64,000 nucleotides of DNA. Source: a virus. Location of the stretch: positions 64,001 through 128,000 of the IMG/VR virus record IMGVR_UViG_3300042868_010004. One strand, given 5' to 3'. The notes beneath the pieces are model-generated. The model saw nothing but the letters and a program-made list of their open reading frames with translations. It did no database searches and was not told the origin of the DNA. Within the stretch, counting starts at the first letter, position 1, and the number at the start of each line of letters is the position of its first letter. The translations under genes were made by a program, and so were the position numbers. Positions 1-55,941 of this stretch are shown here, in pieces.

Positions 1-741
1 TATCCAACCGTAGATGAACAAATTCCGGGCTTTAACGTCCTTTCCTCTTCTTATAAACAATTCGTTTGGGACGATAGCGTTTCCGGCTCTACAGTTATTT
101 CCGGTGTATATCCAAGCGGAAATCAGACCTTGATTCAAAGGGGGCAGGATGGCCTCAAAGTTGATTATCAGAATGGTCGGATTTTAAGCACGGGCAATCT
201 CTCCTCTCCGTTATATTCGGGTGTTTTTTCACGAAAAGAATTTAATACCTATCTCACCAATGAGAGGGATCTGCCTTTGGTTTTCGAGAAAGTCATGGGC
301 AACAACCCGAATCTTGACGCCCCCGCAACGGGCATAGAACCGAATACCTATGCGGCTCCCTGCTGCATCATATCAATGTCGTCCTCTCAGAACGCCCCTT
401 TTGCTTTCGGTGGAATGGACCAAACAGATGTTACGGCTAGAGTTTTGATTGTATCAAAGGATATGTGGCAAATGGACGGGATACTTTCGATCTTCCGTGA
501 TTCAAATAACTTAAAAATTCCATTAATTCCAGCCTCTGGTCTTCCGTTGGATTTTTATGGAGACCTCAAGTTTAACTATAACTATCGGGAATTATTCAAT
601 CAATTTTGCGGAAATGGCTTTTATGTTGATAAAGTTATAGCCTCAAAAGTCTCCGAACGGACAAATAAAAATTCAACCTACTTCGTCTCCTCTTTGGAGT
701 TTCAATTAGCATCTTTCCGCTACCCCCGCTCAGACCTATAA
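1..741 (+). CDS. Virion tail completion/terminator-like protein (5' truncated)
   Basis: Frame is open from base 1 (YPTVDEQIPGFNVLSSSYKQFVWDDS...) to the stop at 739-741. Lies directly before the tube gene; function inferred from position. Confidence 0.5.
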   Translation, partial: YPTVDEQIPGFNVLSSSYKQFVWDDSVSGSTVISGVYPSGNQTLIQRGQDGLKVDYQNGRILSTGNLSSPLYSGVFSRKEFNTYLTNERDLPLVFEKVMGNNPNLDAPATGIEPNTYAAPCCIISMSSSQNAPFAFGGMDQTDVTARVLIVSKDMWQMDGILSIFRDSNNLKIPLIPASGLPLDFYGDLKFNYNYRELFNQFCGNGFYVDKVIASKVSERTNKNSTYFVSSLEFQLASFRYPRSDL

Positions 742-767
742 TTATTTTTCTCTTTCGTTCTGAGAAA

Positions 768-773
768 GTGTAA
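768..773 (+). promoter_or_regulatory. GTGTAA candidate phage late-promoter motif
   Basis: Same hexamer in intergenic DNA before late genes at 768, 2734, 6966, 8118, 10351, 18097, 20084, 22456, 55897, 58468 and (minus) 38352-38357. Confidence 0.55.
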
Positions 774-855
774 ACCCTCACTAGGCAATTAGTTTTTATT
801 CTGTCTGTTTCCCCATTTTTTAAACTCCGTCCAACAATAAGCCCAATCCAATCTT

Positions 856-1920
856 ATGTCATTCAATCGTAGAATTTCCCAAACTCAGGGTCTTTTCGTT
901 TCCCCCACTGGTGTCGCTGGTGTTACTGGTGTCGCTCAAATCTCCCGCGTTCAATCCGTGAATGATGGCTGGGAACTCAATCGTCAGAACGTCAATCAGT
1001 TCGGTCAACTTGCCGCTCTTTCCCGCGAGATTGTTGATGCCCCCACCGTCAATCTTTCCTTCTCTTATTATGTTACCGATGGTGCCGATGAAGAGCGTCT
1101 TGGTTTTGATATTGATGGCGTGAATGGCGCTCTTACTAATATTCTCAATAAGACCCAATCTGAGAAAAATTATTACATTCCCACCGTCCCCGAAGGCGAG
1201 GATCTTGCTGGTGAAGCTGTCGCGAGCATTGTTGATACCCGCGCTATCGGCAACGGTTTCGTATCTTCCTATTCTGTCGAAGGCTCTGTTGGTGGTTTCC
1301 TCACTGCGAATGTCTCTGTTGAAGCCTCTAATGCGGCCTATCACCTTGGCGGCTCTGGCAACCCCAATCCCGCGATTGATCCCCTTGATGGCGACGCCCT
1401 TTCCGGCACTTATACCCTTCCCGTTGGTGTGACTGGTGATGCAGGTCAGCCCATCGTTCTGAAACAAGGCGATCTCAGCCTAAATTTCGGTTCTATTGAT
1501 ACTATCGGTGCGACACTGACCGGTCTTGGTGCCGCCCACATTCAGTCATTCAATCTCAACATCCCGATGGGCCGCGAGCAGCTTCAGCGCCTTGGCAACC
1601 GTTATGCTTATGACCGTCCGCTGACCTTCCCAATTGATGTCACTCTGTCTGTCTCTGCCTTCGTCAATCAGTTGAATACCGGTTCCCTCGCCGAACTGTA
1701 TTGCGGTGACAACAAACATAATATTTCAATCGTTGCTAACAACTCCTGTATTGGTGGCGGGACCGCCGAGATGGTTTACACTCTGAAGGGTGCGACTCTG
1801 GATGCCAAATCCTTCACTTCCTCCATTGGCCCGGCTCAGACTGTCGATCTGACATTTACGGCCTCGGTTGGTGGTCCGAATGATGCAATTAATAACATTC
1901 TGTTCTCTGGCTCCGCCTAA
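856..1920 (+). CDS. Major tail tube protein
   Basis: 354 aa, G/S/T/V-rich beta-type sequence (RVQSVN...NRQNVNQFGQLA...PTVNLSFSYY). Own terminator; sits upstream of chaperones and tape measure. Confidence 0.75.
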   Translation: MSFNRRISQTQGLFVSPTGVAGVTGVAQISRVQSVNDGWELNRQNVNQFGQLAALSREIVDAPTVNLSFSYYVTDGADEERLGFDIDGVNGALTNILNKTQSEKNYYIPTVPEGEDLAGEAVASIVDTRAIGNGFVSSYSVEGSVGGFLTANVSVEASNAAYHLGGSGNPNPAIDPLDGDALSGTYTLPVGVTGDAGQPIVLKQGDLSLNFGSIDTIGATLTGLGAAHIQSFNLNIPMGREQLQRLGNRYAYDRPLTFPIDVTLSVSAFVNQLNTGSLAELYCGDNKHNISIVANNSCIGGGTAEMVYTLKGATLDAKSFTSSIGPAQTVDLTFTASVGGPNDAINNILFSGSA

Positions 1921-1943
1921 TAAGGAAAATAAAATTCATAATT

Positions 1944-1978
1944 AACCCATTCAGGTTTTTCTGAGTGGGTTTTTTATT
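1944..1978 (+). terminator. Rho-independent terminator
   Basis: AACCCATTCAG / CTGAGTGGGTT stem followed by a T tract, right after the tube gene. Confidence 0.85.
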
Positions 1979-2011
1979 GACTAAAAAGGAGGAAATTGTC
2001 ATAATCTTTAT

Positions 2012-2266
2012 ATGTCTAATGAATCCAAGCAGTCTATCATTCGTTTTTCCGCCGATGCCGCTAAAGATTATATCTGTCTGACTCTAGCGGATGGCCGGGT
2101 ATTTGAAGGTCGGAAGGCCATGAGGGACGTTCAGGTATCTTGGAAGCGGCACTTTGATTCCTATATGGGGTGGATTTCCGTAGAGGATAAAGTGTGGTTT
2201 GATGAAGGCCGGGCAGAACGACTTTACAACGAGCGGATGATTGCCAAGGGTGTCTTTACTTTTTGA
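2012..2266 (+). CDS. Hypothetical protein
   Basis: 84-aa ORF with ATG, preceded by a sigma70-like TTGACT-N17-CATAAT from 1977. Confidence 0.7.
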   Translation: MSNESKQSIIRFSADAAKDYICLTLADGRVFEGRKAMRDVQVSWKRHFDSYMGWISVEDKVWFDEGRAERLYNERMIAKGVFTF

Positions 2267-2443
2267 AACTTTGCTCTTGACTAATCCTTAAAGATTTTAA
2301 ATACTATCTTTGTTAGGCGCTTGGAGCCTAATTGTTCTTTGTCCGTAAAGTTGTTAGTAGAAAACGCTCAGAACTTTACCGCTAATAACGGTCATTTGAA
2401 AGCAACAAGCGCCCCAAAGGTCCAATCCCGATGGGGCTATTTT

Positions 2444-2713
2444 ATGAATCTTAATCGCTTCTCCATTCTAAACAGACTCAATCAGGAACAGATAAAGGAA
2501 TTATCCGAATCTTTCGGGTTTTCCTACTCTGAATTTCGTGAGGCCACAACCGGAAGGTATTTTAATGAAAAAATTTGCGATAAGATATGCAAGATGCTAG
2601 GCTATCGTCAGTGGTATCCGAAGTATTGGCCGAAGAATATGCCATATAACGGTTTAATGAATAAGGAAATGGGTAAAAAAATTCAAAAAAGAAAAGAAAA
2701 AGCAAAAAAGTAA
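2444..2713 (+). CDS. Small basic protein, possible HTH (Ner/Cro-like)
   Basis: ATG at 2444 preferred over TTG 2321. Helical LSESFGFSYSEFREATTG...KICKMLG pattern and Lys-rich tail; HTH call is tentative. Confidence 0.5.
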   Translation: MNLNRFSILNRLNQEQIKELSESFGFSYSEFREATTGRYFNEKICDKICKMLGYRQWYPKYWPKNMPYNGLMNKEMGKKIQKRKEKAKK

Positions 2714-2739
2714 TTCTAGAATATCGTTCTTTCGTGTAA

Positions 2740-3480
2740 AATATTGATAAGGTCCGATAAAAGCGTGAAAAAACGCTACAATTGCGCCAGCCTCTAACGG
2801 GATTTCCCACAATGCAGTTTGTGCCCGGACCAGCGCACTTTTGGTAAAACGGTTTACCGATGGGAGTAAGCAGCCTACTTAATTAAAGGGCGGACGTAAA
2901 AATCCGCGCAGGACCGAAGCAAATGTGGGCGAGACCGGTAGAGATTCAATCTCGCCGCCTTTTTCAGTGGCCCTTTGGGGTAATAGTCTCGCTTTTCGAA
3001 AGAAAGATTGGGCTGATGGGCGTAGTCCTAATTCACCACCCCGCTAGGGTGGATTGTGGACTTTTGGGACAGTAAAACAAAAGAGGTTCGTCGTTTGTGC
3101 TAACATGAATTAAAAAAAATGTATTTGTTGGCGAAAAAACCTGTTTTTGAGACAATCCGGCAAAGCCGGACAATCACCAAACGGGTAACTTCCAACAGTG
3201 GCAACTTTTTGAGTTAGCCCAATGAAGACCCAGAGCAAAACAAAACTTTTTCCGAGCAAAAAGATTTTCTTTTGATTTTCGCAAAGCCTCAAATTTCAAT
3301 CACCGCAAAAGTCTTTTCCAAAACCCGGCGAAACGAAAACGGCAAGCTCTGTCTAACGTTTAATCTTACCGAATTCGGTATCTTTAACGATCAATAAGAA
3401 AACGATTGTCGTTAAGAACGAATCAAAATCATTTGATAGTTTCTGCCGACCTATCGGTGTGTTTGACTATCATATTTCAA
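2740..3480 (+). ncRNA. Candidate large structured ncRNA or cruciform-rich control region
   Basis: No credible ORF, more than ten short and long-range helices, GTGTAA motif at 2734 just upstream. Confidence 0.5.
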
Positions 3481-3493
3481 CGATTGTATTTAG

Positions 3494-3543
3494 CCCCACA
3501 CCCCCCTACCCCCCCTCGCCCGTTTTGGCCCGCGCCGCCCGCC
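3494..3543 (-). other. G-tract cluster (G-quadruplex-capable; contains GGGTAGGG)
   Basis: Plus-strand C runs at 3494-97, 3501-06, 3509-15, 3519-21, 3529-31, 3538-40. Confidence 0.6.
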
Positions 3544-3554
3544 GAAATTCGCTC

Positions 3555-3583
3555 TTGACTTTTTTGCGAAAATCTTGAACAAT
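3555..3583 (+). promoter_or_regulatory. Sigma70-like promoter reading into the cassette array
   Basis: TTGACT-N17-AACAAT followed by ATG at 3593. Confidence 0.45.
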
Positions 3584-3592
3584 ACCCAAATC

Positions 3593-3847
3593 ATGACAAC
3601 CAATCCAAATTCTAATTCAGATCTAACGTCAAAGATGAGCGAGACGGATGATTGGCACTGGACGTGCGTAAGCACGGACTGTGACAAGCATACGGCTTCG
3701 CTCCATCGCTTTGTTAGGCTTCTTTTTTTTAATTTTTCTGATAAAACGGAAAAAATTAGCGAGGACCGTTCCGTTTCAATTCAGCTATCTGAGCAAGAAT
3801 ACCATCAAAGATTGGATGCACTGTCTCGCCTTCCTCCTGAACTTTAA
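3593..3847 (+). CDS. Possible ORF translated through attC1 (...LHRFVRLL...)
   Basis: ATG just after a sigma70-like promoter; overlaps the minus-strand gene by 92 nt. Confidence 0.3.
   Translation: MTTNPNSNSDLTSKMSETDDWHWTCVSTDCDKHTASLHRFVRLLFFNFSDKTEKISEDRSVSIQLSEQEYHQRLDALSRLPPEL
3621..3719 (-). repeat. attC site 1 (99 bp)
   Basis: Plus strand ATCTAAC...GATGAGCGA...TCGCTCCATC...GTTAGGC: R boxes, L boxes with one extra base, central CGTGC/GCACG hairpin. Confidence 0.8.
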
Positions 3848-4046
3848 TGGAAAACACAACGGTAAGAACCGAACCTTTCTTCGGCTGAATATTCTTTTCT
3901 TTTAATGTCTGCTCTATGGCAAGAATCGCACCATCAATTGAAAGATCATGTGGGGCGACGACTCTCCAAACCCCCTCGGTTACTGGGTCGATTAGCTCAA
4001 CCACATTTGGAGCCTTCTTTGTGAACTGAAACTTTAAGTTACTCAT
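3756..4046 (-). CDS. Cassette hypothetical protein (paralog A)
   Basis: 96 aa from MSNLKFQF; stop lies 36 nt before attC1. Confidence 0.65.
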   Translation of the reverse strand: MSNLKFQFTKKAPNVVELIDPVTEGVWRVVAPHDLSIDGAILAIEQTLKEKNIQPKKGSVLTVVFSIKVQEEGETVHPIFDGILAQIAELKRNGPR

Positions 4047-4061
4047 TTTTCTGATTTTTCT

Positions 4062-4337
4062 ATGATTACTAATACAAACAAAGTAAATTCCGACCAACAA
4101 CCCGACTACTCCGATAACCTAGTTGATACCGGAGTTAGAATGTGCCGGGACGACGAAAATAAATCCCTCACCGTATCCGTGGATGAATCCACTTTCACTA
4201 TTCCCTTTTCCTTTCTTGAATCTGTCGTAACAGGCTTAATTCTTCAGGGCTGGGCAGGCCGTGTGCTGCCACCTGATTATCTGGATCAACTTTTAATATC
4301 ACTACCGGCGGGAGGTAAGGATCTATTCCGTCCCTGA
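4062..4337 (+). CDS. Possible hypothetical protein, convergent with 4198-4485
   Basis: 91-aa ATG ORF with protein-like composition; 140-nt 3' overlap with the minus gene. Confidence 0.35.
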   Translation: MITNTNKVNSDQQPDYSDNLVDTGVRMCRDDENKSLTVSVDESTFTIPFSFLESVVTGLILQGWAGRVLPPDYLDQLLISLPAGGKDLFRP

Positions 4338-4485
4338 TGCGCTTGCTTCTGAAATCGACTACCGCTTTCTTAGCGGACTCAAAAGATAGTTCATGATCAG
4401 AGAATACCCAATATGTGATTTTTAGTCCGGGGTCACGGACACCGATCATGTGTTTTGGTGGAACCTCTTTGATGAAGTCGCTCAT
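4198..4485 (-). CDS. Cassette hypothetical protein (paralog B)
   Basis: 95 aa; shares a DP..W.V...H(D/E)LS...A..A pattern with 3756-4046. Confidence 0.65.
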   Translation of the reverse strand: MSDFIKEVPPKHMIGVRDPGLKITYWVFSDHELSFESAKKAVVDFRSKRIRDGIDPYLPPVVILKVDPDNQVAAHGLPSPEELSLLRQIQERKRE

Positions 4486-4562
4486 GGTAATAATTTTTTA
4501 ATTTATGAATAACGCTAACGAAAAACAAATCGGCGCGGAAGCGCCTTCTGATGGCTCGGTGT

Positions 4563-4660
4563 GCCTAACGCCCCAGCCTACCCATGACACTGATTGGCAC
4601 GAATCGTGCGCAGCACGAGGCGTGACAAGCAGGGGCATTGGGTGCGGCGCTTCGTTAGGC
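4563..4660 (-). repeat. attC site 2 (98 bp)
   Basis: GCCTAAC...GCCTACCCA...TGGGTGCGGC...GTTAGGC. Internal TGATTGGCAC, CGTGCG.AGCACG and GTGACAAGC are shared with attC1. Confidence 0.8.
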
Positions 4661-4706
4661 TCTTTTTTGGCTTCCGGATTCGTTTATCAAGTGCTGCACT
4701 GCCTTT

Positions 4707-5138
4707 TCAGACCTTTTTACTATTTCCGTCTTGTTCGGTGGTTTGTAAGTCTGAATCCGACCATTCATCATTTTCTCCTTTTGTGTCAGGCGTCGGCAAT
4801 ATGTCGGGGTAACTCTCAATCGGCCTTGGCGTGTATAAATAATCCGAATTCTCCGGGCAAGATAGCCTTTTATTCAAATTATACGTTACCGTTGCCATAT
4901 CCAAAGAACGAAAAAATGGATGCCAAGGCTTGGGGGCCTCTGCCATCAATCTCCCACCAAACTCCCACACAAGACAAACTGTGCCCGCAATCCCAGCATT
5001 TGCCGCGCAAATCTGTATAAAAATCTTGGTTTCAAGCATATCTTTCGCGGTGGCATTTTGTGCCCACCGTCCATTCAGAGGAACTATAATCATTTGCTGA
5101 CCACGAACATTCAAATGCGCTATATTGTAATTCTTCAT
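4707..5138 (-). CDS. Cassette hypothetical protein
   Basis: 143 aa with a (N/D)IAHL..GQQMIIVPL...GLAGTV..VW..GG...APxPWHPFF-type pattern recalled from uncharacterised bacterial proteins; ends 46 nt before attC2. Confidence 0.7.
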   Translation of the reverse strand: MKNYNIAHLNVRGQQMIIVPLNGRWAQNATAKDMLETKIFIQICAANAGIAGTVCLVWEFGGRLMAEAPKPWHPFFRSLDMATVTYNLNKRLSCPENSDYLYTPRPIESYPDILPTPDTKGENDEWSDSDLQTTEQDGNSKKV

Positions 5139-5205
5139 ATTGTAAGATAGATGAATAAAATTCAGTAAATTAGCAGGATTGCGTCCGAAACCAATAAAAC
5201 TCTGG

Positions 5206-6630
5206 CTATAATCTATCTAGATCAGCTAGAATCTCTCTTGGTGCCGCGCCATTCTCGGGTCCGACAATTCCGTTCTCCTCCAATAAATCCATGATCTGCG
5301 CCGCTCGATTATATCCAATCCTGAGGCGGCGCTGAAGAGTCGAGGTTGATGCCCGCTGAGTAGCCTTAAGAATATTCAGCGCCTTGTTGTATAATAAAAC
5401 ATCATCCAGATCTTCTCCTTCATCATCCACTTCGTCCAAATCATCTTCCTCGGAAGAGTCATCGAACTGTATAGCTCTATTTATTAAATCAGATTTGCTC
5501 TCGGTTTCTGAGCGGACGAGAACCCCCAGAACCATCGCAAGCAAATCATCTACATCGTGAATCTTCGAAACTTGGGAAGAAACCACAGCTTCGTCATCAA
5601 AAAGTCGCGCACTTAGCCGGGAATGAATCCCTTTCGGATGAAGTAGAAAAACATTCGCGGAGGAAGCCAATGCTTGGGCTGATTTCGTGAAAATTCCGGT
5701 GCTAATAACTGCGGCAAAATCAGCCTTCTCAAACTCTCTTCCCGCAATGATTTCTTGAACGGCTGAGTTCCCGACACTGTTAGCGTATCGTTTGCACTGA
5801 ACCACAAGTTTAACTCTCGGCGTCGTCGCAATAACATCAATTCCTTGATCCCCGCTCCCCGATGTGGTTCGTGTAGTCCAACCCGAGCGAGAAAGTTCGT
5901 TAGCGCATTCTCTCTCGAAACTGATGGGATCAAGCTCGGCCCATTCAAACTCCGCGCTTTCTGCCTTACCCCAGCATGACGAAGCAAAGTCAATAATGCG
6001 AAATACTCTATTGTATGTTGATTCTACACTTTTTACTGATCGCAGAGAATCAAATTCCTTACTGCTTCCACCTACTAAAAAATGAAGGATGAAATAATTA
6101 ATCTCTGCGTCCCATTCCTCTCGAATCTGTCTCCCATAATGATCAACGCGCAAAAGCTGGGATCTTCTTAGGCTCAGTGTGGGCAAATGATGAACCAACG
6201 GGGGCCTGATTAAATCAATGATTTTTAGTAACTCGATTTCGGTTCGCTCTTTTTCGGCTTTAGCTCTTTCAAGCAGTTCAATCTTTCTTTCCTTTTCTCT
6301 GCTCAATCTCAAAGACTCAAATTCGATTTTCTTCGCCTCTCGCCTGATAGTATCCAGAGACAATCCATCAAGGAAATGATTCAATTGCTCCGCCGTGAAT
6401 TTAAATTTTGTGAGATCTGCCAGCTCTCGGTTAGCTTCCTCAACAAAATACTCTAACGTTACACCGGGAAGGTCTCGGAATGCTTTTAACGAATCCCGCC
6501 ATACCATCTCTTGCTCCTTGGTGATTACTGTGACGACCGGGGCGGGCTTCTCACTCTTCTTGGTCTGACACTTATGACACGTTTGGGCGTCATCCCAGTT
6601 CTGAACGTTGCAGCATGGACAGTTCCACAT
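5206..6630 (-). CDS. RanBP2-type zinc finger / Mrr-like restriction endonuclease / FtsK gamma-domain fusion
   Basis: WNCPCCNVQN..TCHKC; FERECA..GSGDQGIDV..VQCKRY..VGNSAVQEI (Mrr_cat PD-(D/E)xK); ASTSTLQRRLRIGYNRAAQIMDLLEENGIVGP..PREIL (FtsK gamma wHTH). Confidence 0.85.
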   Translation of the reverse strand: MWNCPCCNVQNWDDAQTCHKCQTKKSEKPAPVVTVITKEQEMVWRDSLKAFRDLPGVTLEYFVEEANRELADLTKFKFTAEQLNHFLDGLSLDTIRREAKKIEFESLRLSREKERKIELLERAKAEKERTEIELLKIIDLIRPPLVHHLPTLSLRRSQLLRVDHYGRQIREEWDAEINYFILHFLVGGSSKEFDSLRSVKSVESTYNRVFRIIDFASSCWGKAESAEFEWAELDPISFERECANELSRSGWTTRTTSGSGDQGIDVIATTPRVKLVVQCKRYANSVGNSAVQEIIAGREFEKADFAAVISTGIFTKSAQALASSANVFLLHPKGIHSRLSARLFDDEAVVSSQVSKIHDVDDLLAMVLGVLVRSETESKSDLINRAIQFDDSSEEDDLDEVDDEGEDLDDVLLYNKALNILKATQRASTSTLQRRLRIGYNRAAQIMDLLEENGIVGPENGAAPREILADLDRL

Positions 6631-6706
6631 GGTGTTGAGCTAGGCAAAATGCCAATTTTTCGTAAAGCGAAAATCTATTTTTCTTTGGCTGCGGTGATGT
6701 GAGCGA

Positions 6707-6900
6707 GGCGAACGGTAGAATTAAAAAACCTTTGGCTGCGCACTTTTGCGCGGCAGCGCAATCTGGAATTAGATAGCTGGGCTTCGCCCGGCGTCGATTT
6801 CGTGTGTGGTGCCTAGCATGGGTCGTGCGTAGCACGACTGATGCGTAGCACGGTTGTTTGTGGTTTGTTGGCTCGAAAAACGACTTTGTGACCGTTCGGC
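6707..6900 (-). repeat. Long degenerate or composite attC-like site
   Basis: GGCGAACGGT ... ACCGTTCGGC termini, with GTCGTGC-GTA-GCACGAC hairpin at 6822-6838 partly duplicated at 6842-6852. Confidence 0.5.
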
Positions 6901-6980
6901 GCAAGCCGATTTAAGGGAACAATGTCGTGGATTGGGGGATCGTTTTTCTCTTTTTCCGAAGATCGGTGTAACCCAAGGAA

Positions 6981-7316
6981 ATGGATTCCAAGTATGAGCT
7001 AACTAGAGAAGATTTCGAAAATCATTTCGCTAGATTCTCAGAAGAGGAGCGAAAGCGTATAATTTCCTTTCTGGAAAAGACTCAATATACCCCACCACTT
7101 TCTTCATTCTTTCTTCGTCCGACATCAGCTCCTTGGTCCATTTTCCCTCTAGCTCTCTCGCGATTCTTTCACTATTTATTTTGGCATAAGCTGATTTCAA
7201 CCAATCTCCGAAATCGTCTAGACCAGTGGCAAAAGCGTAGATATGAGCGTATTCATGGTAAACCACCTGAAGGGGACAATTTCCTGAAGACTTTATTAGA
7301 GTGGGGCGCAGACTGA
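6981..7316 (+). CDS. Possible hypothetical protein antisense to the HExxH gene
   Basis: 111-aa ATG ORF with GTGTAA 9 nt upstream, the same spacing as at gene 18112. Confidence 0.45.
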   Translation: MDSKYELTREDFENHFARFSEEERKRIISFLEKTQYTPPLSSFFLRPTSAPWSIFPLALSRFFHYLFWHKLISTNLRNRLDQWQKRRYERIHGKPPEGDNFLKTLLEWGAD

Positions 7317-7485
7317 TTGTATCTCCGATTGCTCCCGCGATACTGACCGGCTGATTATCACTGGCGAAAACCTTAATACCTTCGGGATACTTTTGAAGTA
7401 TAGCCGATTGAACCTCGCCCGGCAACGTATCGAATAACTGGCGGGCCAGATTTTCTAGATTGGTGTATTCGTGAGGGGGCGGCAT
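7030..7485 (-). CDS. Cassette protein with HExxH zinc-metallopeptidase-like motif
   Basis: VVYHEYAHIY; begins 65 nt after minus-strand GTTAGGC at 7557-7551. Confidence 0.6.
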   Translation of the reverse strand: MPPPHEYTNLENLARQLFDTLPGEVQSAILQKYPEGIKVFASDNQPVSIAGAIGDTISLRPTLIKSSGNCPLQVVYHEYAHIYAFATGLDDFGDWLKSAYAKINSERIARELEGKWTKELMSDEERMKKVVGYIESFPERKLYAFAPLLRI

Positions 7486-7550
7486 GGTTTTTGGGGCGAG
7501 TGGCTGGCGCGGAGCATGCGAATAAGGAAATAGATTGGGTGGGTTGGTTT

Positions 7551-7577
7551 GCCTAACGCTCAAGGTGAGCGAGACGG
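7551..7577 (-). repeat. attC half-site (L'-R')
   Basis: GCCTAACGCTCAAGGTGAGCGAGACGG matches the attC1 arm ATCTAACGTCAAAGATGAGCGAGACGG. Confidence 0.7.
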
Positions 7578-7608
7578 GATAAGTCTTATTTTGTTTTTGT
7601 TTTGGTAT

Positions 7609-7716
7609 GCCTAACGCCCCCTATCAGCCATGCAGCCCCAATCTTTCGGTCCTATGAATAACTCCTCGCGAAAAATTGTAACGGCTATATGCATTGGCTG
7701 CATAGGTTTGTTAGGC
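7609..7716 (-). repeat. attC site 3 (108 bp)
   Basis: GCCTAAC GCC CCTATCAGCCA ... TGGCTGCATAGG TTT GTTAGGC, with the extra base on the same arm as attC1. Confidence 0.8.
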
Positions 7717-7854
7717 TCATTTTTTATTTTTCTTCTTTCTTTAGGACTACATCCAGTTCTAGCGGCTTTATTGGCGCTAGGGGGATCAGTAAGTGTGTCT
7801 GGCTTGACGTTTGTGGCGATTGGAATATGGGGGCCACCTGAATGGATGCTCTAG
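7630..7854 (+). CDS. Possible small membrane protein starting inside attC3
   Basis: 74 aa with two hydrophobic segments; ATG lies in the attC loop. Confidence 0.35.
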   Translation: MQPQSFGPMNNSSRKIVTAICIGCIGLLGSFFIFLLSLGLHPVLAALLALGGSVSVSGLTFVAIGIWGPPEWML

Positions 7855-7933
7855 GGAAAACGGTAAACCATGCCTGAATACTTCCAAAAGCCGTGGCAGA
7901 TAAGTAAATATAAAAAGTAATATGTTCGTCCAT
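7724..7933 (-). CDS. Cassette small protein with hydrophobic N-terminus
   Basis: 69-aa ATG ORF whose stop lies 7 nt before the attC3 R'' box. Confidence 0.5.
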   Translation of the reverse strand: MDEHITFYIYLSATAFGSIQAWFTVFPRASIQVAPIFQSPQTSSQTHLLIPLAPIKPLELDVVLKKEEK

Positions 7934-8066
7934 CTCTGTTCTCTCTGTATCTTTAACTGCATTGAAGCCATTCGCGCCAAAGTTCGCAATATGGCCTGCC
8001 CAGTTCCTCTGCCTTGGAAATTCAGTGATTCATCGTGTGTATCTATCAATAGATGTTCCGGCGTGT

Positions 8067-8088
8067 TCGCTCCAGCGCTTCGTTAGGT
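8067..8088 (-). repeat. attC half-site (R''-L'')
   Basis: TCGCTCCAGCGCTTCGTTAGGT matches the attC1 arm TCGCTCCATCGCTTTGTTAGGC. Confidence 0.7.
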
Positions 8089-8191
8089 TCCTGTAATTTC
8101 TCATTTTCTATTTTCCCGTGTAATCCCTTTTTAGGCAAAGGCAGGATTCAGAATTCAGTCAGTAATTGGTTTTTCGGCACACGGTAAAAAT

Positions 8192-8476
8192 ATGCAAGCA
8201 AAAGATTATCTAGGTCTACATACGACCAAAGAAGTAAAATACCTATACAAGCATTTCCTTGAGACTCTTGAGGAAATCCACCGGCAGCACGATTCCAGTT
8301 TGTTCAAACTGATGAACGGGCTACCAAAAGAGTATCAGTCTCAGGTCATTCAGGCCGCGTTTTTTGACGACGAGGGCTATCAGCACTTTCGTAAGCTCGT
8401 GCTCGACCACGGAAACGAATCCATCCGGGCGCTCCTTGATGAGATTGAGAAATATGAAATTGACTTCAAGCGATAG
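8192..8476 (+). CDS. Hypothetical late protein
   Basis: 94-aa helical ORF after GTGTAA at 8118. Confidence 0.75.
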   Translation: MQAKDYLGLHTTKEVKYLYKHFLETLEEIHRQHDSSLFKLMNGLPKEYQSQVIQAAFFDDEGYQHFRKLVLDHGNESIRALLDEIEKYEIDFKR

Positions 8477-10326: not shown

Positions 10327-10394
10327 GGTATTCTATTGGACCTATTTTGGGTGTAATCCTTTATATAGGTTTAAGGATTTAAGATTTTATCATC

Positions 10395-13300
10395 ATGGCT
10401 GACGCACCCTTTGTTTTCTCCTCAAGACTCAGCACCCGTTCTTGGGAGCGGGATGTTAACGCTGGTTTCCGTCGTGCGCAGGCCGGTATCAATCGGCAGA
10501 AGATTGGTTTTAATGTTGATCCCTCTGGTCTGAATAAACTTTCGGCCCCTCTTGGTAAACTCACGACTCAGGCCGGTGAGTTCAATCGCTCCCTTGAAGC
10601 GTCCAATGCCCGCGTTTTGGCCTTCGGTGCCTCCGTTGGTATTATCACGGCGCTTGGCCGTGGTTTTTCAGCCCTTGTTCGTGACGCCGTTGAAGTTCAG
10701 GCCGTCTTGGCTGATATTAATACGATCCTGAAGCAGAGCGCGGATGGTTTGTCCCAGTATGAGGCGCAGATTTTTAGTGTCGCTAGAAATACGGGTCGTT
10801 CTTTTAAAGAAACTGCTACCGCTGCCTTGGAGCTTTCCCGTCAAGGTCTATCGGCAGAGGAATCACTTGAACGACTGAATAATGCACTCATCCTGACTCG
10901 CCTTAGCGGTTTGTCTGCCGAGGATTCCGTTCAAAGCGTCACGGCGGCTATCAACTCTTTCTCGAAAGAAGTCTTAGACTCCTCCATTGTTGTTAATAAA
11001 TTCTCGACTGTCGCCGCGAAATTCTTCGTTTCAGAGAAGGACTTGGCCGAAGCCGTCCGTCGCGTGGGCTCCTCTGCTCAGGATGCCAATGTCAGCTTTG
11101 ATGAACTGATTGCCATCGTAACTGCCGCTCAACAGACTACGGCCCGTGGTGGCGCGGTTATCGGTAATTCATTTAAGACAATTTTCACCCGTCTGCAACG
11201 TTCAAGCACCCTGACGGAGTTGGAAAATTTAGGTGTCGCCGTAAGAGATTTAGAGGGAAATGTTCTCCCCGCTGTTGAAATTCTTAAATCTCTCGCCAGT
11301 CAGATTGACGGATTGAGTCAGCCCCAGCAGGCTTATATTTCCGAATTGACCGCTGGTGTCTTCCAAATCAATCAGTTGAAGGCTATTCTCGGTGACTTGT
11401 CTGGTGAATATTCTTTTTATAAAGCGGCCTTGGAGTCTTCGGTTGGCGCGACAAATGAGGCCATCAAACGTAATGAAGAGCTGAATAAAACTTACGCCGC
11501 TCAATTCAATGCAATTAAGCAGAGTATCACCCAGATTTCTTCTGTTTTGGGTCGCGACCTACTCGGTCCCCTTACTCAATCCTTAACCGCATTTTTTGAG
11601 TCCGCTCAGGATACTTTCGGAATTAAAGAGGGCGAAAAAGTCGGTAGTGAATTTGCTTCTGGTATTGTAAAAGGTATTGGCGGTGTAATCGGCGGGCCGG
11701 GCTTATTGGTTGCCAGCGCGGTCATCCTTGGCCTCTTTGTAAAACTCGGAAAATTTGCCCTTGGCGCGCTTAAAACCGTCTCTGACTTGGCTGGCGTTAT
11801 CGGAAAGAGAAAAGAAATTCAGGCGGAGGTTAATCGTTTGGTCGCCGAGGAACCCAAACTTCTCAGTCAGATTCTAACCGGGGCAAAATCCGTAGAGGAG
11901 GTTGAGAAGAGAATTCTTGCTTTAATCAGGCAGAAGATTATAGCGCAGGAACAATTTAATGCTGTTACTTTGGGCGTTGCGACTAGGGCCACCCCGAGGG
12001 TAGGCCAAGGCACCAATCTGGCTCAGGCGGGCTTAGGTTTCAGCGGAGGGGCTTTTACTAGTCGTCCAGTTGGTGGAACGGGCCGCGTTCCTAATTTTGC
12101 CGATCCAATTAAGGAAGCTTTTGATCGTGAGCGCGCAGCGGGCATTCCAGCCAATCAGATTTATGTGGATTCCGACCCACGAGTAAAGGGACCGGGTAAT
12201 CCTCTTGGTCTTCTAGTGGCGAATCGTCGGGACGAGCCATTAGGCGGTTTTCAAGGTGTCAATCGGGCAATTGCCTTGGGTCAAGATCCGAAGAAATCAG
12301 GAATGAGCGGATCGAATATTCCGAATTTTGCCGCGTTTGATAATCTTCAAATGGGTGGAAATTTTGCCCCATTTAACATCACGTCGGAACAGTCCAGACA
12401 ATTCCGCTCTCTTTTTGGTAAACTAACCAACAGCGTTTCCAAACTGAATCGTCAGCTATCTTTTGAATTAGGCGAGTCTATTCAAAAGTATGGTGAGAGC
12501 ATTAACCTCACAAAAGAATCACAGGAAAAGGTTCGCTCGGTTCTTAATCAGCAATTTAACCGGCTGGTCAGACTAGAAAATCAACCAAGAATTATTCGTT
12601 CTGGTGGTGGGCGTAGAGCTACACTGGAGGAATTTGAAGCCACGAGACAGCAGTTTGCGGGAGTATCTGGACTCGCAGGTCCGAATTTTACCGAAGGTTC
12701 AATCGGGGTGGGTAGAAATAGGGAGATTACAAAAGCTTTTGCTTCTAGATCTATTCAGGAACAGCGCGGGATTAATCTTCAGGCGGCTTCCGAAAGAGTC
12801 CAAAGCGGAAGAAATCTAACATCTTCCCAGTTAAAAGCCATTAGCACCGAATCTTTCATTCAGGCTTTACAAAGTCCTTCTCTCGCCGGTCTTTCCAAAA
12901 GAGAAATCGCAGTAAATCCCGAGGCTAGGAGAGAGTTGCGCCGCTTGGCAAAGGCATATCGTGATGAATTCGGCAAGGCTTTGGATTCGGCTCAAATTAG
13001 TTCCGCTGCTGACCGTGCTTTTACATTTTCAAATTTCAGTCTCGGTTCTGTCTTCGGAACGGAAAAGGGTGATGAGAAAAGATTCCGCCGTGAATTGGGT
13101 GTCAAGCCGGGGCAAAAACTTTCTTCTGAACAGCAAAATACATTCTTCAACCGTAGAATGCAGACTCAGCAACAAAGAAGCTCGAATGTAACAAATCGAG
13201 CTTTCCTTGGTTCAATTGCAGCGTCTTTTATCGCTCCCCAGTTTGCCGATAGTAGTCCGATCACAAGTGGGATTTTTGAGGGCGCGGGGGCGGGGTTGGC

Positions 13301-16300
13301 GGCGGGCGGCTTGGCAAGTATGGGGAATCCTTATATTGCTGCCGGTGCAGGTCTTGCAGGCGCGGGCATAGGCGCGACTAAAGCTATCAGTGGTGGAGAT
13401 GAAAGAGCCTTTAATAAAGCTGCCTCTGATTTCCAAAATCTAACTGCGAAAATTAACGAGAATAGAAACGGCGTTCAGCAATATATTGAAGCGCAGGCGA
13501 AACTTAATGATACGTTGAAAGAAGGTAAGGCTTCAACAGAGGATATTGAAAAACTAAATCAGAATCTCACCAACGTCTTCCGGACGATTGAAGATCAGGG
13601 TCTTCGTCGTGGCATTATTGCCGCCGCCGGAAATCTTGAACAGCTACAAAAAGTTTTTGCCGAATTTGAAAAGAATTCAATCTTCAAGGAAGCTGCTGAG
13701 TCAATCACCTTGCTTTCCACTTCCGCCAAGAATAATAAAACAGGGAGAAACGCCTTCGGTTTTGGTGGAGACTTCCTTACTCGCGATCTCTCTAAGATTG
13801 GAGAAAATCTTCTTACGGCAAATTCAGGCGACGAAAAGACTCGATCTGGCTTCCTGAGTCTGATCCAAGAGATTGATGAATTAGCTGCGTCAGGAAAATC
13901 TGAACAGGCGGCGGAAAAGCTAGCTAGAATTAATCCGGCCCTAGAAGGAATTGATAACTCATTTGATATTCGCACGATTACCGGCGCGGCTCTTGCATTC
14001 AACGATGTTTCTAAAGCCCTGAAATCCACACAGGAGGTCAACACGGAATACCTTGCCCAATTAGGAAAATACCAAAGGGAGTTCCTGAAACTATCTTCCG
14101 AATTAATCGAACAGCAACGCATCATCCAGCTTGAAGGCGAGTTACAAACCCGTCTGACCTTGGCTCGCGTGGGCGCAAATTTGGAGGATTCAACTTTTGG
14201 CACGACTGAGCGCTCGGCAATCGGGGCGCGATCCTCTTTCAGACAAGCCGAACTGGTGGGTCGTTTTAATGAACAGAGGTCCGAACTTGATTCCGGCCTG
14301 CGTGCCAATTTGCAGTCTTTCTTATCCGAGGTTCCGCAAACACTCTCCCGGCAATTTGCCAACCGCATCCAAAGTGGAAGTCCAAGACAGGTCTTGGATG
14401 AGATTCTTCAGGCGACAACCGGCTCGACAAGTGAACTTGGGAAGAAGCCGCAAGAGCAGATTGACAAATTAGAGCAGTTGCAAAAGACTTTTGACGGTCA
14501 ACTAACCGAACTCAACAAATCGACTCGCGAATCCCTTGAATTGGAGAGAATTTCAGCGGAGGCGGAAAAGCGTCGCGTTGACCGGCAGAATCGGATTGGT
14601 TTGCTTGGCGGAGCGAGTTTTAATCCGTTAGATTTTTCAGCAATACGGGCCGGTCGTGGGGCCGCAACTACCAGATTCCGTGGGGAGCAAATTCTTCGCG
14701 GGAATACCGCCGGACTGGATACCAATGCTATCCGCAATACAACGCAGTCTGCCCGTATCCTTGAAACGCAAGGCATTCTCTCTCGCTCTCAACTCTTACC
14801 CGGCCTTCCAACGAGTGACCGCGATATTGATACTGCCAGCAAGGCGTTTGAACAAAATCTTACCGACAATCTCAATCAGCTTGTCGCATCCTCTCTTCGC
14901 GGCCTCCTTTCGGATGAATCTCTTGGGCAGACTGGTTTGGTTTCGGGTCAGGATTTACGCGGGGGTCTGACTTCTCTACTCAGTCGTTCGGCGCGCGGTG
15001 GTCAAACCGACTTTTCTGGTGCCGCTAATTTTGTTCGCGCTCGCCTGCCCGATTTTGGTTCCGGCGGAGAACTTAAACGTCAATTGATTGAATTATTTGA
15101 GGAGGCGGCGAGAGATCAGGGGACATTGGGCGAGGCTGGGCGGGATCAAGCCAGAAGCCTCCTTCAGACGGATAAACAAAAAGAGGATTCCTTTATCCAG
15201 AGGCTTGTTTCGGGCTTCAAGGGTGAGGATATCGCTCGGAATACTTTTGATACGCAGGTCAGAATTGAAGAGCTAAAGAAAGTTTTTGAGGCTCAGGCGG
15301 CATTAACCGTAAAATCGGAAGCAGTATCCGCCAAACAAAGAGAACTGAATGAAATAAACGTTGCAAAAGCGGAAGCGCAGAGAGATATAGAGCGTCGCGT
15401 GGGCGGCAGCAGATTCGACTTTTCAAAAACTAGGGTTTTGACTGGCGGAAATACAATTCCGTTAGACGAACAACTAAAACTTGTCAGAGAAATTGTCTCT
15501 AAATTGGGACTTCCGGAATTTAAACCCGGTGATTCAACAACCCTGCCTGCTATCCGCAGCTTAACAAAAGGTATTGGTGAAAGTTCTACTTTGTCCGAGG
15601 CAAGGGATCGCATTTTGGGATCTCCCGAGTTGGAGCCAGCCGTTAGATTCATTTCCCAAGGGGCTAGAACCGACGAGGAAAGAGTCGCGGCGGTAGATAA
15701 ATTCCTTTTAGAGTTTTCTACCGCTGATGAAACCGTAAAAAATGCAAATTCTAGTCTCAGTCAGTTTAATACGCAAATTGGGGCCGTCACCACAGAGCTA
15801 AACAAATTGCGCGCAAGATTGGATATTGATACAAAAACATTTCAGGGGCAATTCGCCTCCCAACCACCTAATATTGTCAGTAATCGCCTATCTAACAGCG
15901 GCACCCTATCTGATACACAAAAAAGCGATTCCCGTAGGATTATTGGTGGATTTTCCGAAAATCTTCGAGGCGGAGCAAATGCGATTTCGGCTTTGCAATC
16001 TAATCGGGAGCAGCTTGGGAAGGTTAACGAAAGAATTCAAGGCGTGGTTCAGAGAACGGCTCAGTCTGGAACTCTTTCTCGTTCTGACGAGGCCCTTCTC
16101 GACGCTTTGCGACAGGATAGAAATGAATTGGCGGCAGTAATTAATGCACAGGAGGAATCTATAAAGAAAGGTGTTACCGAAATTGCAAATAAAACTGCCG
16201 AAGCAATGAAGGAGGCATTTGTTGACTTGCCGGACGCTCTGAATGCAACACTGACACAGAATTTGACTCTGGCTGGTCAGGTAATCCTCAGAGATGGAAA

Positions 16301-16451
16301 AGTAACAGCGGAAGAGGTTCAAGGCTTGAATGAGGCTTTCTTAAAATTCATTGAAGAGTATTACAGCAAAAAACTAAAAGAAAAAGCTGATGCTCAAACG
16401 AAAGAAAACGGCGGAATACCCACCCCTCCAACCCAGCGCCCAAAAGTCTAA
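10395..16451 (+). CDS. Tail tape measure protein (TP901-type core)
   Basis: 2018 aa; helical A/L/E-rich core (AELSRQGLSAEESL..NKFSTVAAKF..LAEAVRRVGSSA..GNSFKTIFTRL), Gly/Ala hydrophobic segments, repeated PNFA motifs. Confidence 0.92.
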   Translation: MADAPFVFSSRLSTRSWERDVNAGFRRAQAGINRQKIGFNVDPSGLNKLSAPLGKLTTQAGEFNRSLEASNARVLAFGASVGIITALGRGFSALVRDAVEVQAVLADINTILKQSADGLSQYEAQIFSVARNTGRSFKETATAALELSRQGLSAEESLERLNNALILTRLSGLSAEDSVQSVTAAINSFSKEVLDSSIVVNKFSTVAAKFFVSEKDLAEAVRRVGSSAQDANVSFDELIAIVTAAQQTTARGGAVIGNSFKTIFTRLQRSSTLTELENLGVAVRDLEGNVLPAVEILKSLASQIDGLSQPQQAYISELTAGVFQINQLKAILGDLSGEYSFYKAALESSVGATNEAIKRNEELNKTYAAQFNAIKQSITQISSVLGRDLLGPLTQSLTAFFESAQDTFGIKEGEKVGSEFASGIVKGIGGVIGGPGLLVASAVILGLFVKLGKFALGALKTVSDLAGVIGKRKEIQAEVNRLVAEEPKLLSQILTGAKSVEEVEKRILALIRQKIIAQEQFNAVTLGVATRATPRVGQGTNLAQAGLGFSGGAFTSRPVGGTGRVPNFADPIKEAFDRERAAGIPANQIYVDSDPRVKGPGNPLGLLVANRRDEPLGGFQGVNRAIALGQDPKKSGMSGSNIPNFAAFDNLQMGGNFAPFNITSEQSRQFRSLFGKLTNSVSKLNRQLSFELGESIQKYGESINLTKESQEKVRSVLNQQFNRLVRLENQPRIIRSGGGRRATLEEFEATRQQFAGVSGLAGPNFTEGSIGVGRNREITKAFASRSIQEQRGINLQAASERVQSGRNLTSSQLKAISTESFIQALQSPSLAGLSKREIAVNPEARRELRRLAKAYRDEFGKALDSAQISSAADRAFTFSNFSLGSVFGTEKGDEKRFRRELGVKPGQKLSSEQQNTFFNRRMQTQQQRSSNVTNRAFLGSIAASFIAPQFADSSPITSGIFEGAGAGLAAGGLASMGNPYIAAGAGLAGAGIGATKAISGGDERAFNKAASDFQNLTAKINENRNGVQQYIEAQAKLNDTLKEGKASTEDIEKLNQNLTNVFRTIEDQGLRRGIIAAAGNLEQLQKVFAEFEKNSIFKEAAESITLLSTSAKNNKTGRNAFGFGGDFLTRDLSKIGENLLTANSGDEKTRSGFLSLIQEIDELAASGKSEQAAEKLARINPALEGIDNSFDIRTITGAALAFNDVSKALKSTQEVNTEYLAQLGKYQREFLKLSSELIEQQRIIQLEGELQTRLTLARVGANLEDSTFGTTERSAIGARSSFRQAELVGRFNEQRSELDSGLRANLQSFLSEVPQTLSRQFANRIQSGSPRQVLDEILQATTGSTSELGKKPQEQIDKLEQLQKTFDGQLTELNKSTRESLELERISAEAEKRRVDRQNRIGLLGGASFNPLDFSAIRAGRGAATTRFRGEQILRGNTAGLDTNAIRNTTQSARILETQGILSRSQLLPGLPTSDRDIDTASKAFEQNLTDNLNQLVASSLRGLLSDESLGQTGLVSGQDLRGGLTSLLSRSARGGQTDFSGAANFVRARLPDFGSGGELKRQLIELFEEAARDQGTLGEAGRDQARSLLQTDKQKEDSFIQRLVSGFKGEDIARNTFDTQVRIEELKKVFEAQAALTVKSEAVSAKQRELNEINVAKAEAQRDIERRVGGSRFDFSKTRVLTGGNTIPLDEQLKLVREIVSKLGLPEFKPGDSTTLPAIRSLTKGIGESSTLSEARDRILGSPELEPAVRFISQGARTDEERVAAVDKFLLEFSTADETVKNANSSLSQFNTQIGAVTTELNKLRARLDIDTKTFQGQFASQPPNIVSNRLSNSGTLSDTQKSDSRRIIGGFSENLRGGANAISALQSNREQLGKVNERIQGVVQRTAQSGTLSRSDEALLDALRQDRNELAAVINAQEESIKKGVTEIANKTAEAMKEAFVDLPDALNATLTQNLTLAGQVILRDGKVTAEEVQGLNEAFLKFIEEYYSKKLKEKADAQTKENGGIPTPPTQRPKV

Positions 16452-20034: not shown

Positions 20035-20099
20035 GGCTATTAAGTTTCAGGTGTTTCCTGAGATTCTAAGGCTGACCGTTTTAGTGTAAACTTGTTTTT

Positions 20100-22411: not shown

Positions 22412-22492
22412 AACGGATTTCCACTCGGTTCCGTATTCCATTAAAACCCAAAAAAGTGTAAACTCCTAACTAAGGTTTAAGGGGTTTTACTA

Positions 22493-31995: not shown

Positions 31996-33168
31996 TTAGT
32001 CCGTCTTCCGTTGAAGAATACAAAAATACCCGCTATCCTTCCAGAAGTCTTCTGAATCAATCACCGCGCCCTCATTTTGAATGAATGACTGAGTGGGTTG
32101 ATTGGCTTTCCAGTGGGCATGAGAAAGGAAGATTTTTCCATCTGACAAGAGGTATTTATTTGTCTTGAACTTTAAACCGTCATAATTTGTCTTTTCTCCG
32201 GTCTTGTCAAGCGGATTTTCTGTAGGTTTGATAGATTCGACCAAGGCGACATCCAGCATACGGAAACGGATTTCGTCCAGTTCTGAACCATCTGCGCGGC
32301 AGAAGAAAATAGTTTTAACCCCGGAATGCTTGAGTTTTTTACAATAATCAATACTAGTCTGGCTCGTGACTTCAAAATTCAGAACCGGAATGCGGCCACG
32401 GGCTCGTTTTAGGAGATCAATGGAAATTTCTTGATTGGCTACAACCGTATATTTCCGCGTAGAAAGCAGTTGGGCCAAAGCATTCTCATCATGTAAGTAA
32501 TCCATTCGAAGGCTGAAAACATGCTCGGGGAAGATTTGAGGATTAATGATTGAGTCCGGTATTACTTCGATTACCGAATTTTGAAACAATTCTCCCATAT
32601 ATTTTGTTTCAAAAGAGGCCCGGCGACTGACAAGATTCAGTAAGACCGTATCAACAATCTCTTCTGGTTTGATCGTATTGATATTTTTATTTCGTTCAAC
32701 CGCTTGGTAGGTCGGGTGGGGTGCCGTCCCACAAATATTGACCGAGAAATAATTCAGTCCATTGGTCTGACAACTTGTTGAGCCATAAAGCGTTACCGCA
32801 TCTTTTTTATATTTCGCAGCAAGTATTGAATACAGATGATCCCCGGACAAAAGCATCCGGCAACGGGAGATTAGGTAGTCGGCCTTCCCCGGTCTCAGCC
32901 CAAGGAGATGTGCCGAACAAGCATTTAATCGGGAACAGGGTTTATCGGAGATTTGAACGAGAATGAATTGATTGCCAAGTTCTTTTTTTAGTTCATCGAC
33001 AACAATCGCCCAATAATCATAGGTCTTACTCGGAGCCTTTTCATTCGGCGAGGTATTGATCAGGATGGTTTTTCCCAAGTCGAAGTCAACGGGGACGAAA
33101 TCCTCCATGATGTAAGGTTCGGAATGCCGTAAGCCGGTGGAAAGAGAATACAGATCGGTAAGTTTCAT
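31996..33168 (-). CDS. GT9 (heptosyltransferase-like) glycosyltransferase
   Basis: SKTYDYWAIVV..LVQI..LLSGDH....AA....AVTLYG pattern. Confidence 0.6.
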   Translation of the reverse strand: MKLTDLYSLSTGLRHSEPYIMEDFVPVDFDLGKTILINTSPNEKAPSKTYDYWAIVVDELKKELGNQFILVQISDKPCSRLNACSAHLLGLRPGKADYLISRCRMLLSGDHLYSILAAKYKKDAVTLYGSTSCQTNGLNYFSVNICGTAPHPTYQAVERNKNINTIKPEEIVDTVLLNLVSRRASFETKYMGELFQNSVIEVIPDSIINPQIFPEHVFSLRMDYLHDENALAQLLSTRKYTVVANQEISIDLLKRARGRIPVLNFEVTSQTSIDYCKKLKHSGVKTIFFCRADGSELDEIRFRMLDVALVESIKPTENPLDKTGEKTNYDGLKFKTNKYLLSDGKIFLSHAHWKANQPTQSFIQNEGAVIDSEDFWKDSGYFCILQRKTD

Positions 33169-55863: not shown

Positions 55864-55941
55864 CGGAGAAAGGCGCTTCTAGGACGGATGCTATTAGTGT
55901 AAACTTAGATAAGCAAAAACCGCATAGCCTTTCTCCGCTTT

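Follow-up and report, generated by a model that had tools for sequence, protein, structure and literature searches.

A candidate late-transcribed structured RNA carried together with the gene of a small HTH-like protein within a lake phage tail module

The window analysed here is a stretch of 64,000 nt, corresponding to bases 64001-128000 of a complete 191,122-bp IMG/VR lake-phage record with direct terminal repeats. For positions 2734-3480 of this window, the original prediction had proposed a late-expressed structured non-coding RNA of about 740 nt. Gene order read around the locus places the interval within the tail module (Table 1), where approximately 5.9 kb of accessory DNA separates the 84-aa gene, located after the tube protein gene, from the 94-aa gene. 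In distant relatives, the distance from an 81-aa gene to the 94-aa gene is only 136 nt (L009) or about 470 nt (L008), and the accessory DNA is therefore considered to occupy an insertion hot spot. Directly 3' of the tube gene, a strong intrinsic terminator-like hairpin (1944-1971; 12 pairs and a T-run) is immediately followed by the promoter of the 84-aa gene. The plus strand has three sigma70-like promoters of the type TTGACT-17-nAnAAT (1977-2005, 2277-2305 and 3555-3583). The last of these is directed at a plus-strand ORF of 84 aa (3593-3847), with which both the first attC site and a minus-strand cassette gene overlap.

Table 1. Features at and around the gene-free stretch; positions are those of the window unless a contig is named.
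Feature	Position	Strand	Remarks
Hcp-like tube protein gene	856-1920		Tail module
84-aa gene	2012-2266		Tail module, after the tube gene
Sigma70-like promoter, TTGACT-17-AATACT	2277-2305	+	Upstream of the 89-aa gene; consensus match only, 9/12
89-aa basic protein gene	2444-2713	+	C..C..LGY..WYPKYWPK motif, Lys-rich tail
Late-type promoter motif, TTCTA-N15-GTGTAA	2714-2739	+	Points into ORF-free DNA
Conserved 5' RNA domain (candidate)	2748-2866	+	H1 2751-2788, H2 2798-2827, H3 2843-2858; RAUGG end
H1 inner hairpin	2762-2777	+	Within H1
Hairpin GCGGA-8-UCCGC	2890-2907	+	Positional analogue of the H4 CCGCG/CCGUG hairpin in L010/L025
Long imperfect hairpin domain, 131 nt	3095-3225	+	Includes UCCGGC-aaa-GCCGGA, 3156-3170
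Segment common to L006/L007	3314-3480	.	About 85% identity; palindrome 3367-80 and other inverted repeats
Canonical attC sites (RYYYAAC...GTTRRRY, paired arms)	3621-3719, 4563-4660, 7609-7716	.	Adjoining integron-type cassette array
94-aa gene	from ~8190		Then 259-aa and 332-aa genes
Tape measure protein gene	10395-16451		Tail module
Copies of the late-type motif	748-773, 2714-2739, 6946-6971, 8098-8123, 10331-10356, 20064-20089, 22436-22461, 55877-55902		
Family B elements	L015 1380-2000; L016 3060-3700; L022 935-1560; L023 1220-1870		About 650 nt, ORF-free

The absence of coding capacity was examined across the locus. Between 2714 and 3574, no ORF exceeds 60 aa and only short, unconvincing ORFs are present, in agreement with the prediction of ORF-free DNA after the GTGTAA at 2734-2739. 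The segment 2883-3356 is the largest stretch lacking a stop-to-stop frame of at least 70 aa in the entire 191,122-bp genome. Alternative genetic codes fail to account for the gap, as the flanking tail genes are normal in code 11, and no conserved ORF was detected in any relative of either family A or family B, the two groups of elements described below. A group I or group II intron was considered and rejected: no Rfam intron model matched in the whole window or across 2300-4600, and where relatives lack the insert, the flanking 84-aa and 94-aa genes are two separate, intact genes.

Searches for known RNAs and for similar DNA gave few matches. At gathering scores, none of the 4227 models of Rfam 15, including GOLLD, ROOL, OLE and raiA, matched anywhere in the window. 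A permissive Rfam search across 2300-4600 returned three chance matches only (E = 4-9). Among related contigs, L010, L015 and L016 gave nothing at E up to 1, and L006 gave chance matches only. A tRNA/tmRNA search found none, and BLASTN against GenBank phages produced no match. Exact-pattern scans, with four patterns in IMG/VR and one in the JGI metagenomes, recovered the L010 contig and chance matches only, while protein-guided scans of metagenome, viral and GTDB genome contigs yielded nothing beyond L010. The tube-protein relatives L002-L005, L008 and L009 contain neither similar DNA nor an insert.

The start of the gene-free stretch is marked by a bipartite motif, TTCY[AC]-N15-GTGTAA, present in 17 copies in the genome against 0.45 expected (maximum of 3 in 200 shuffles). 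Fourteen of the 17 copies lie on the plus strand, and eight of the 17 are listed in Table 1. Apart from the copy at 2714-2739, 13 of 16 are found within 115 nt upstream of an ORF of at least 94 aa, and the ORFs behind them include those for the tube protein, the 94-aa protein, the tape measure and further tail proteins. Because the motif precedes structural genes, we infer that it is the late promoter of this phage. The motif is also retained at equivalent places in the kin loci L006, L008 and L009. The copy under study begins one base past the upstream gene's stop codon and, alone among the plus-strand copies, is not followed by a sizeable ORF, the nearest being a 50-aa frame 183 nt away. Downstream of its GTGTAA, the sequence is unlike that of the other late sites.

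Immediately upstream of this motif lies the gene for the 89-aa basic protein, which had no Pfam match and no PHROG match. Its AlphaFold (AF2) model has a pLDDT of 77.5. The best fold matches of the model are almost all XRE/Cro/HipB/CI domains with Z ≤4.5, and the Foldseek matches have E above 1, a weak indication that the protein may adopt an XRE/Cro-type helix-turn-helix (HTH) fold. Homologs (L010:4001-4207, P0122, P0123, P0125, P0126 and P0127) were identified in six other contig lineages, namely L010, L025, L015, L016-19, L022 and L023/24; L025 was found by a profile search with the 89-aa protein. One further candidate, P0124 (438 aa), was discarded as a weak repeat-like match in an unrelated genome, and no homolog was found in the GTDB genomes. 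In all seven lineages, the protein gene is followed by 650-1500 nt without a called gene. L010 is a 78-kb phage contig unrelated to the window phage, and its homolog is 53% identical to the 89-aa protein. There, the module is located between minus-strand genes encoding a DprA-like protein, a transposase and an endonuclease (3400-3909, 5994-7229 and 7230-8141); the neighbourhood of the module therefore varies from phage to phage.

Comparison of the DNA downstream of the protein gene revealed a conserved block at the 5' end of the gene-free stretch. The DNA after the L010 homolog gene is 88% identical to window positions 2747-2788 over 42 nt, whereas the adjacent proteins are only 53% identical. 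A nhmmer profile of L010 and L025, built without the window, matches 2743-2845 at E = 3.3e-19. These three metagenomic sequences (window, L010 and L025) constitute family A as defined in this analysis. In their alignment, 94.9% of cells pair, compared with 27-40% when the partners are slid, and the three unpaired cells of L010 correspond to gap placement by MAFFT. Changes on both sides were observed in 10 of 26 pairs; slid controls gave 1-2 and shuffled ones 3.6 ± 1.5 (0/500 reached 10). The sequence of hairpin H3 is wholly different from one genome to the next, yet all three form its six pairs. Several conserved pairs are G-U, which become A-C on the other strand, so that the structure would form from the plus strand only. 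The hallmarks of the family A 5' domain, comprising the order H1-H2-H3, a UAAGS start, and ACUUUU and RAUGG linkers, are all present in the window. A covariance model of the domain (R1) scores the window at 139 bits, a circular value as the window is in the training set; a search of the genome with R1 yielded this one copy only, and neither family B nor L006 gave a match.

The upstream regions of these elements are also comparable. Sigma70-type promoters in L010 (TTGATT-18-TATACT) and L025 (TTGACA-18-TATCAT) end 4 nt before the conserved UAAGG/UAAGC. The start of the RNA thus falls at one position, preceded by a sigma70-type promoter in L010 and L025 and by the late-type motif in the window phage.

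Hairpins and complementary segments had been listed in the original prediction as signs of structure. All six hairpins (2762-77, 2843-58, 2890-2907, 3036-52, 3156-70 and 3434-72), the perfect 14-bp palindrome at 3367-80 and three long-range complements are indeed located as described, although each is about as frequent as chance predicts. Our own estimate gives roughly 4 chance occurrences per 64 kb for a perfect 14-bp palindrome, and likewise about 4 for complementary 8-mers lying within 750 nt. Covariation with the relatives confirmed the hairpins at 2762-77 and 2843-58, while the proposed CCCACA/TGTGGG pairing (2806/2924) clashes with the covariation-supported local hairpin H2. The folding energy of the full 747 nt gave z = -1.97 for the plus strand and z = -4.3 for the minus strand (20 shuffles each). 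Plus-strand sub-ranges were similar (2745-3320, z = -1.66; 2734-3125, z = -1.48), and local 200-nt z-scores in the interval are no better than those of flanking coding DNA. On folding energy alone, the interval would not have withstood the comparison with shuffled sequence by which the original prediction was to be refuted. Only 3095-3225 stands out in its fold (z = -3.26).

These ordinary z-scores and chance-level counts of hairpins and palindromes are what non-functional intergenic DNA would be expected to show, with the promoter motif and the hairpins coincidental. Such a coincidence is highly improbable in our estimation, as a 26-nt motif expected 0.45 times per genome is situated exactly at the start of a conserved, compensating block. 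The conserved element could instead act as DNA, giving the HTH protein an operator or a site for recombination or replication, with no functional RNA; a cruciform or origin had been named in the earlier work as an alternative, and palindromes are present. The weak XRE/Cro-type fold of the partner would fit such a site, since folds of this type normally bind DNA, as would the movement of the module between phages as a unit. The stems, however, are maintained by compensatory substitutions as well as by G-U pairs, a pairing available on the plus strand alone, and H3 pairs despite completely different sequences in three genomes. Furthermore, the upstream promoters stand at a fixed distance, a terminator-like hairpin lies 630 nt downstream in the relatives, and no iterons, direct-repeat families or skew inflection were found. 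A site acting as DNA is accordingly regarded as quite improbable.

The extent of the proposed RNA was assessed with the sister phage L006, to which L007 is identical at this locus. Its tube protein is 98% identical to that of the window phage, and the two genomes match over window positions 1-1936 at 96% and 3314-8331 at 99.5% (BLAST, alignment). L006 has unrelated DNA where the window has 1937-3313, which defines mosaic breakpoints at 1937 and 3313. The partner gene, the promoter and the 5' domain are together missing from L006/L007, and since the sister phage is without both, the protein gene and the RNA appear to travel as one module. Within the common segment to the right of 3313, identity falls to about 85% over 3314-3470, and substitutions in L006 degrade the 3367-80 palindrome, break a stem at 3383-3416 and cost the 3434-72 stem one pair, in each case without compensation. 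The right-hand third of the interval therefore has a different history, and its inverted repeats are under no visible selection. The segment 3314-3480 is probably outside the functional RNA.

Two further observations concern the sister phages. At 7403-8050 in L006, and likewise in L007, an unrelated ORF-free stretch of about 650 nt replaces the protein gene and the RNA. It has no Rfam match, a fold z of -1.6 for its first 278 nt and a weak similarity to window 3105-3340 (z = 2.9), and could represent either a diverged allele or a further RNA gene. A third sister contig (JGI sample 3300059473), with a tube protein identical to P0001 and 98% identical to that of the window, has no cassette array, and its 81-aa and 94-aa genes are separated by 964 nt of gene-free DNA, which suggests that the ORF-free DNA predates the array.

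Between the 5' domain and the breakpoint, comparative evidence is sparse. Beyond approximately 2866, no homology of the window to L010 or L025 was detectable, and a covariance model (R2) of the ~160-nt multi-branch central domain of L010/L025, run with filters off over 2200-4200, reached E = 0.14 at best, in an unrelated location. The body of the window element beyond ~2870 is thus lineage-specific, as judged from these searches. For the hairpin at 2890-2907, we infer a homology of position with H4, with ~25 extra nt preceding the window hairpin. The 131-nt hairpin domain at 3095-3225 has an MFE of -37.1 kcal/mol, with 1 of 200 shuffles as good, and its local alignment scores z = 5.4 against the L010 central domain (0/300) and z = 1.2 against L025; it is possibly part of the RNA starting near 2748. 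No convincing plus-strand terminator was found in the window. Of the candidates, the AU-rich hairpin at 3236-3274 (-5.7 kcal/mol, z = +0.8) is weak, and the 3367-3380 palindrome followed by UCUUU is weak to moderate (-8.3 kcal/mol, z = -1.9). From these positions, the 3' end of the RNA could lie between ~3230 and ~3390.

The relatives are better defined in this respect. L010 and L025 share 84% identity over 645 nt, with 169 predicted pairs of which 9 are compensatory, and their elements end in a short hairpin with 2 compensatory changes, followed by UUUUCUCU. This terminator-like end indicates a putative transcript of ~630 nt. The two sequences are ~75% identical in the 5' 150 nt and ~95% identical in the body.

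A shorter functional unit must be considered in light of these data. The functional part would then be limited to ~120-170 nt (2748-2910), which might serve as a leader or a small RNA, or be the target, as RNA or as DNA, of the HTH protein encoded upstream. The other ~400-550 nt would be what is left, after decay or replacement, of a former RNA of ~630 nt, or mere spacer produced by recombination beside the cassette array. The loss of homology to L010/L025 at ~2866 is compatible with this, as are the mosaic breakpoints and the different evolution of the 5' 150 nt and the body in L010/L025, which suggests separable domains. The 2870-3313 segment, moreover, has neither a terminator nor comparative support, with the exception of one weak local similarity. 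On the other hand, every other lineage retains at least 650 nt of ORF-free DNA, nowhere else does this tightly packed genome have so long a stretch without ORFs, and 3095-3225 both folds unusually well and locally resembles L010. No terminator follows H3 or H4 either. Overall, the short element appears unlikely. The longer RNA is preferred, yet not as the ~740-nt unit originally drawn: its portion from 3314 onward is common to a sister phage without the promoter, partner gene or 5' domain, and 2870-3313 is poorly supported by comparison. The core of the original prediction, a late-expressed, structured RNA between tail genes, is supported by the promoter motif and the covarying 5' domain.

The gene-free stretch abuts an integron-type cassette array with canonical attC sites from 3621 onward, identified with a pattern of our own rather than the IntegronFinder model. 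The strict pattern also matches 32694-32783 (90 nt, -26 kcal/mol), far from the array, which may be a chance occurrence. Given this proximity, the stretch could represent one or more ORF-less cassettes or the leader of the array, especially as cassette content varies between sister phages and a weak attC-like long hairpin is present at 3098-3219. However, no canonical R''/R' pair was found in 2267-3620, and each box of the 3098-3219 hairpin (TGCTAAC...GTTAGCC) misses the consensus at two positions, so that it was rejected as an attC. The L006 breakpoint at 3313 does not coincide with any attC-like site. Additionally, the protein-plus-RNA module occurs at six other loci (L010, L025, L016, L022, L023 and L015) with no canonical attC nearby. 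A cassette origin is considered very unlikely. A separate candidate attC at 2312-2332 (GTTAGGC...GCCTAAT) was rejected as a simple terminator-like hairpin after the 84-aa gene.

The remaining lineages with the partner protein carry a second type of element, designated family B (L015, L016, L022 and L023; Table 1). Its alignment comprises 107 predicted pairs with 96% of cells paired, and 38 pairs are compensatory, against 3-7 in slid controls. Family B is thus a candidate for a new large RNA in its own right. Covariation support appears good overall, being moderate for the 5' domain of the window and strong for family B. Families A and B have no detectable RNA similarity, and the family B profile misses the window; the link between them consequently rests on the protein and on synteny.

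Taken together, these results point, with some reserve, to a probable plus-strand non-coding RNA gene extending from ~2748 to ~3230-3390, late-transcribed and carried with the HTH-like protein gene. Weighing against it are the small size of family A, with three metagenomic sequences, the restriction of similarity with L010/L025 to the 5' ~120 nt, the unremarkable plus-strand folding energy beside a better minus-strand fold of the 747 nt, the weakness of the terminator candidates, the dissimilarity of the sequence after GTGTAA to that at other late sites, and the missing RNA similarity between families A and B. In this proposal, the RNA would be transcribed from the phage's own late-type promoter, and a discrete transcript would be made from ~2748 onward. 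Its first ~120 nt would fold as H1-H3, defining the previously undescribed family A. The RNA gene would be inherited together with the XRE-like HTH protein gene, and in the window phage the sigma70-type promoter would have been exchanged for the late type. The RNA may act in its folded form, bound by the HTH protein or regulated with it. That one protein family is always the partner suggests an RNA-protein complex or a regulator and its RNA; the antisense targets of the RNA in the phage genome are all at chance level. A broader proposal, for which we see the case as evenly balanced, is that the window belongs to an undescribed class of structured phage RNAs (~0.55-0.7 kb in better-sampled relatives) with at least two families, A and B, each located directly downstream of an XRE-like 'WYPKYWPK' protein. 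The class would form a portable ribonucleoprotein or regulator-plus-RNA module under the phages' own promoters, here a late one.

To our knowledge, large structured non-coding RNAs are rare, and the phage examples, GOLLD and ROOL, have no known function. A further class, seen only in phage-like metagenomic contigs, would widen the catalogue of large phage RNAs, and its constant protein partner offers an experimental handle on structure, on binding and on any influence over infection. In addition, a clean late-promoter consensus for a phage emerges from this case, and the same RNA start is seen behind a host-type promoter in two phages but behind a phage late promoter in the third.

Several known systems resemble the proposed module in part. 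ORF-less integron cassettes and CALIN arrays share the presence of gene-free DNA beside attC-bounded cassettes and the variability between sister phages, but here the segment ends show no canonical attC and the module is found elsewhere without attC. The P4 CI RNA, the P1/P7 c4 RNA and the N15 CA RNA are phage RNAs located beside small HTH regulators; they are shorter than 200 nt and act by antisense pairing. They likewise place a small HTH regulator and a non-coding RNA side by side, whereas the present RNA has no above-chance antisense target, a late-type promoter and a position in the tail module. The OLE RNA, large (~600 nt) and structured, functions with the dedicated, co-encoded partners OapA/B/C, which are membrane or KH-like proteins; it is encoded on the chromosome of extremophilic Firmicutes. 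OLE is the nearest precedent for a pair consisting of a large RNA and a small protein gene, although the OLE model of Rfam does not match here and the partner is XRE-like HTH, with RNA binding putative.

GOLLD (RF01998) and ROOL (RF03087), large ornate RNAs found in phages and prophages, are similar in being ORF-free, several hundred nt long, phage-borne and multi-hairpin, with function unassigned and no tie to an adjacent coding frame, and the size class of the relatives (630-700 nt) is comparable. No tRNAs neighbour the window element, and neither covariance model matches at the site (E up to 10) or in the relatives (E up to 1). GOLLD and ROOL are phage-associated and form RNA-only assemblies (PMC12286853). 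As described, those assemblies are protein-free, whereas a dedicated small protein gene is always adjacent in the elements presented here. With none of the 4227 Rfam models matching, the window element would probably represent a new RNA family, within a kind, the large structured phage RNAs, that is already known.
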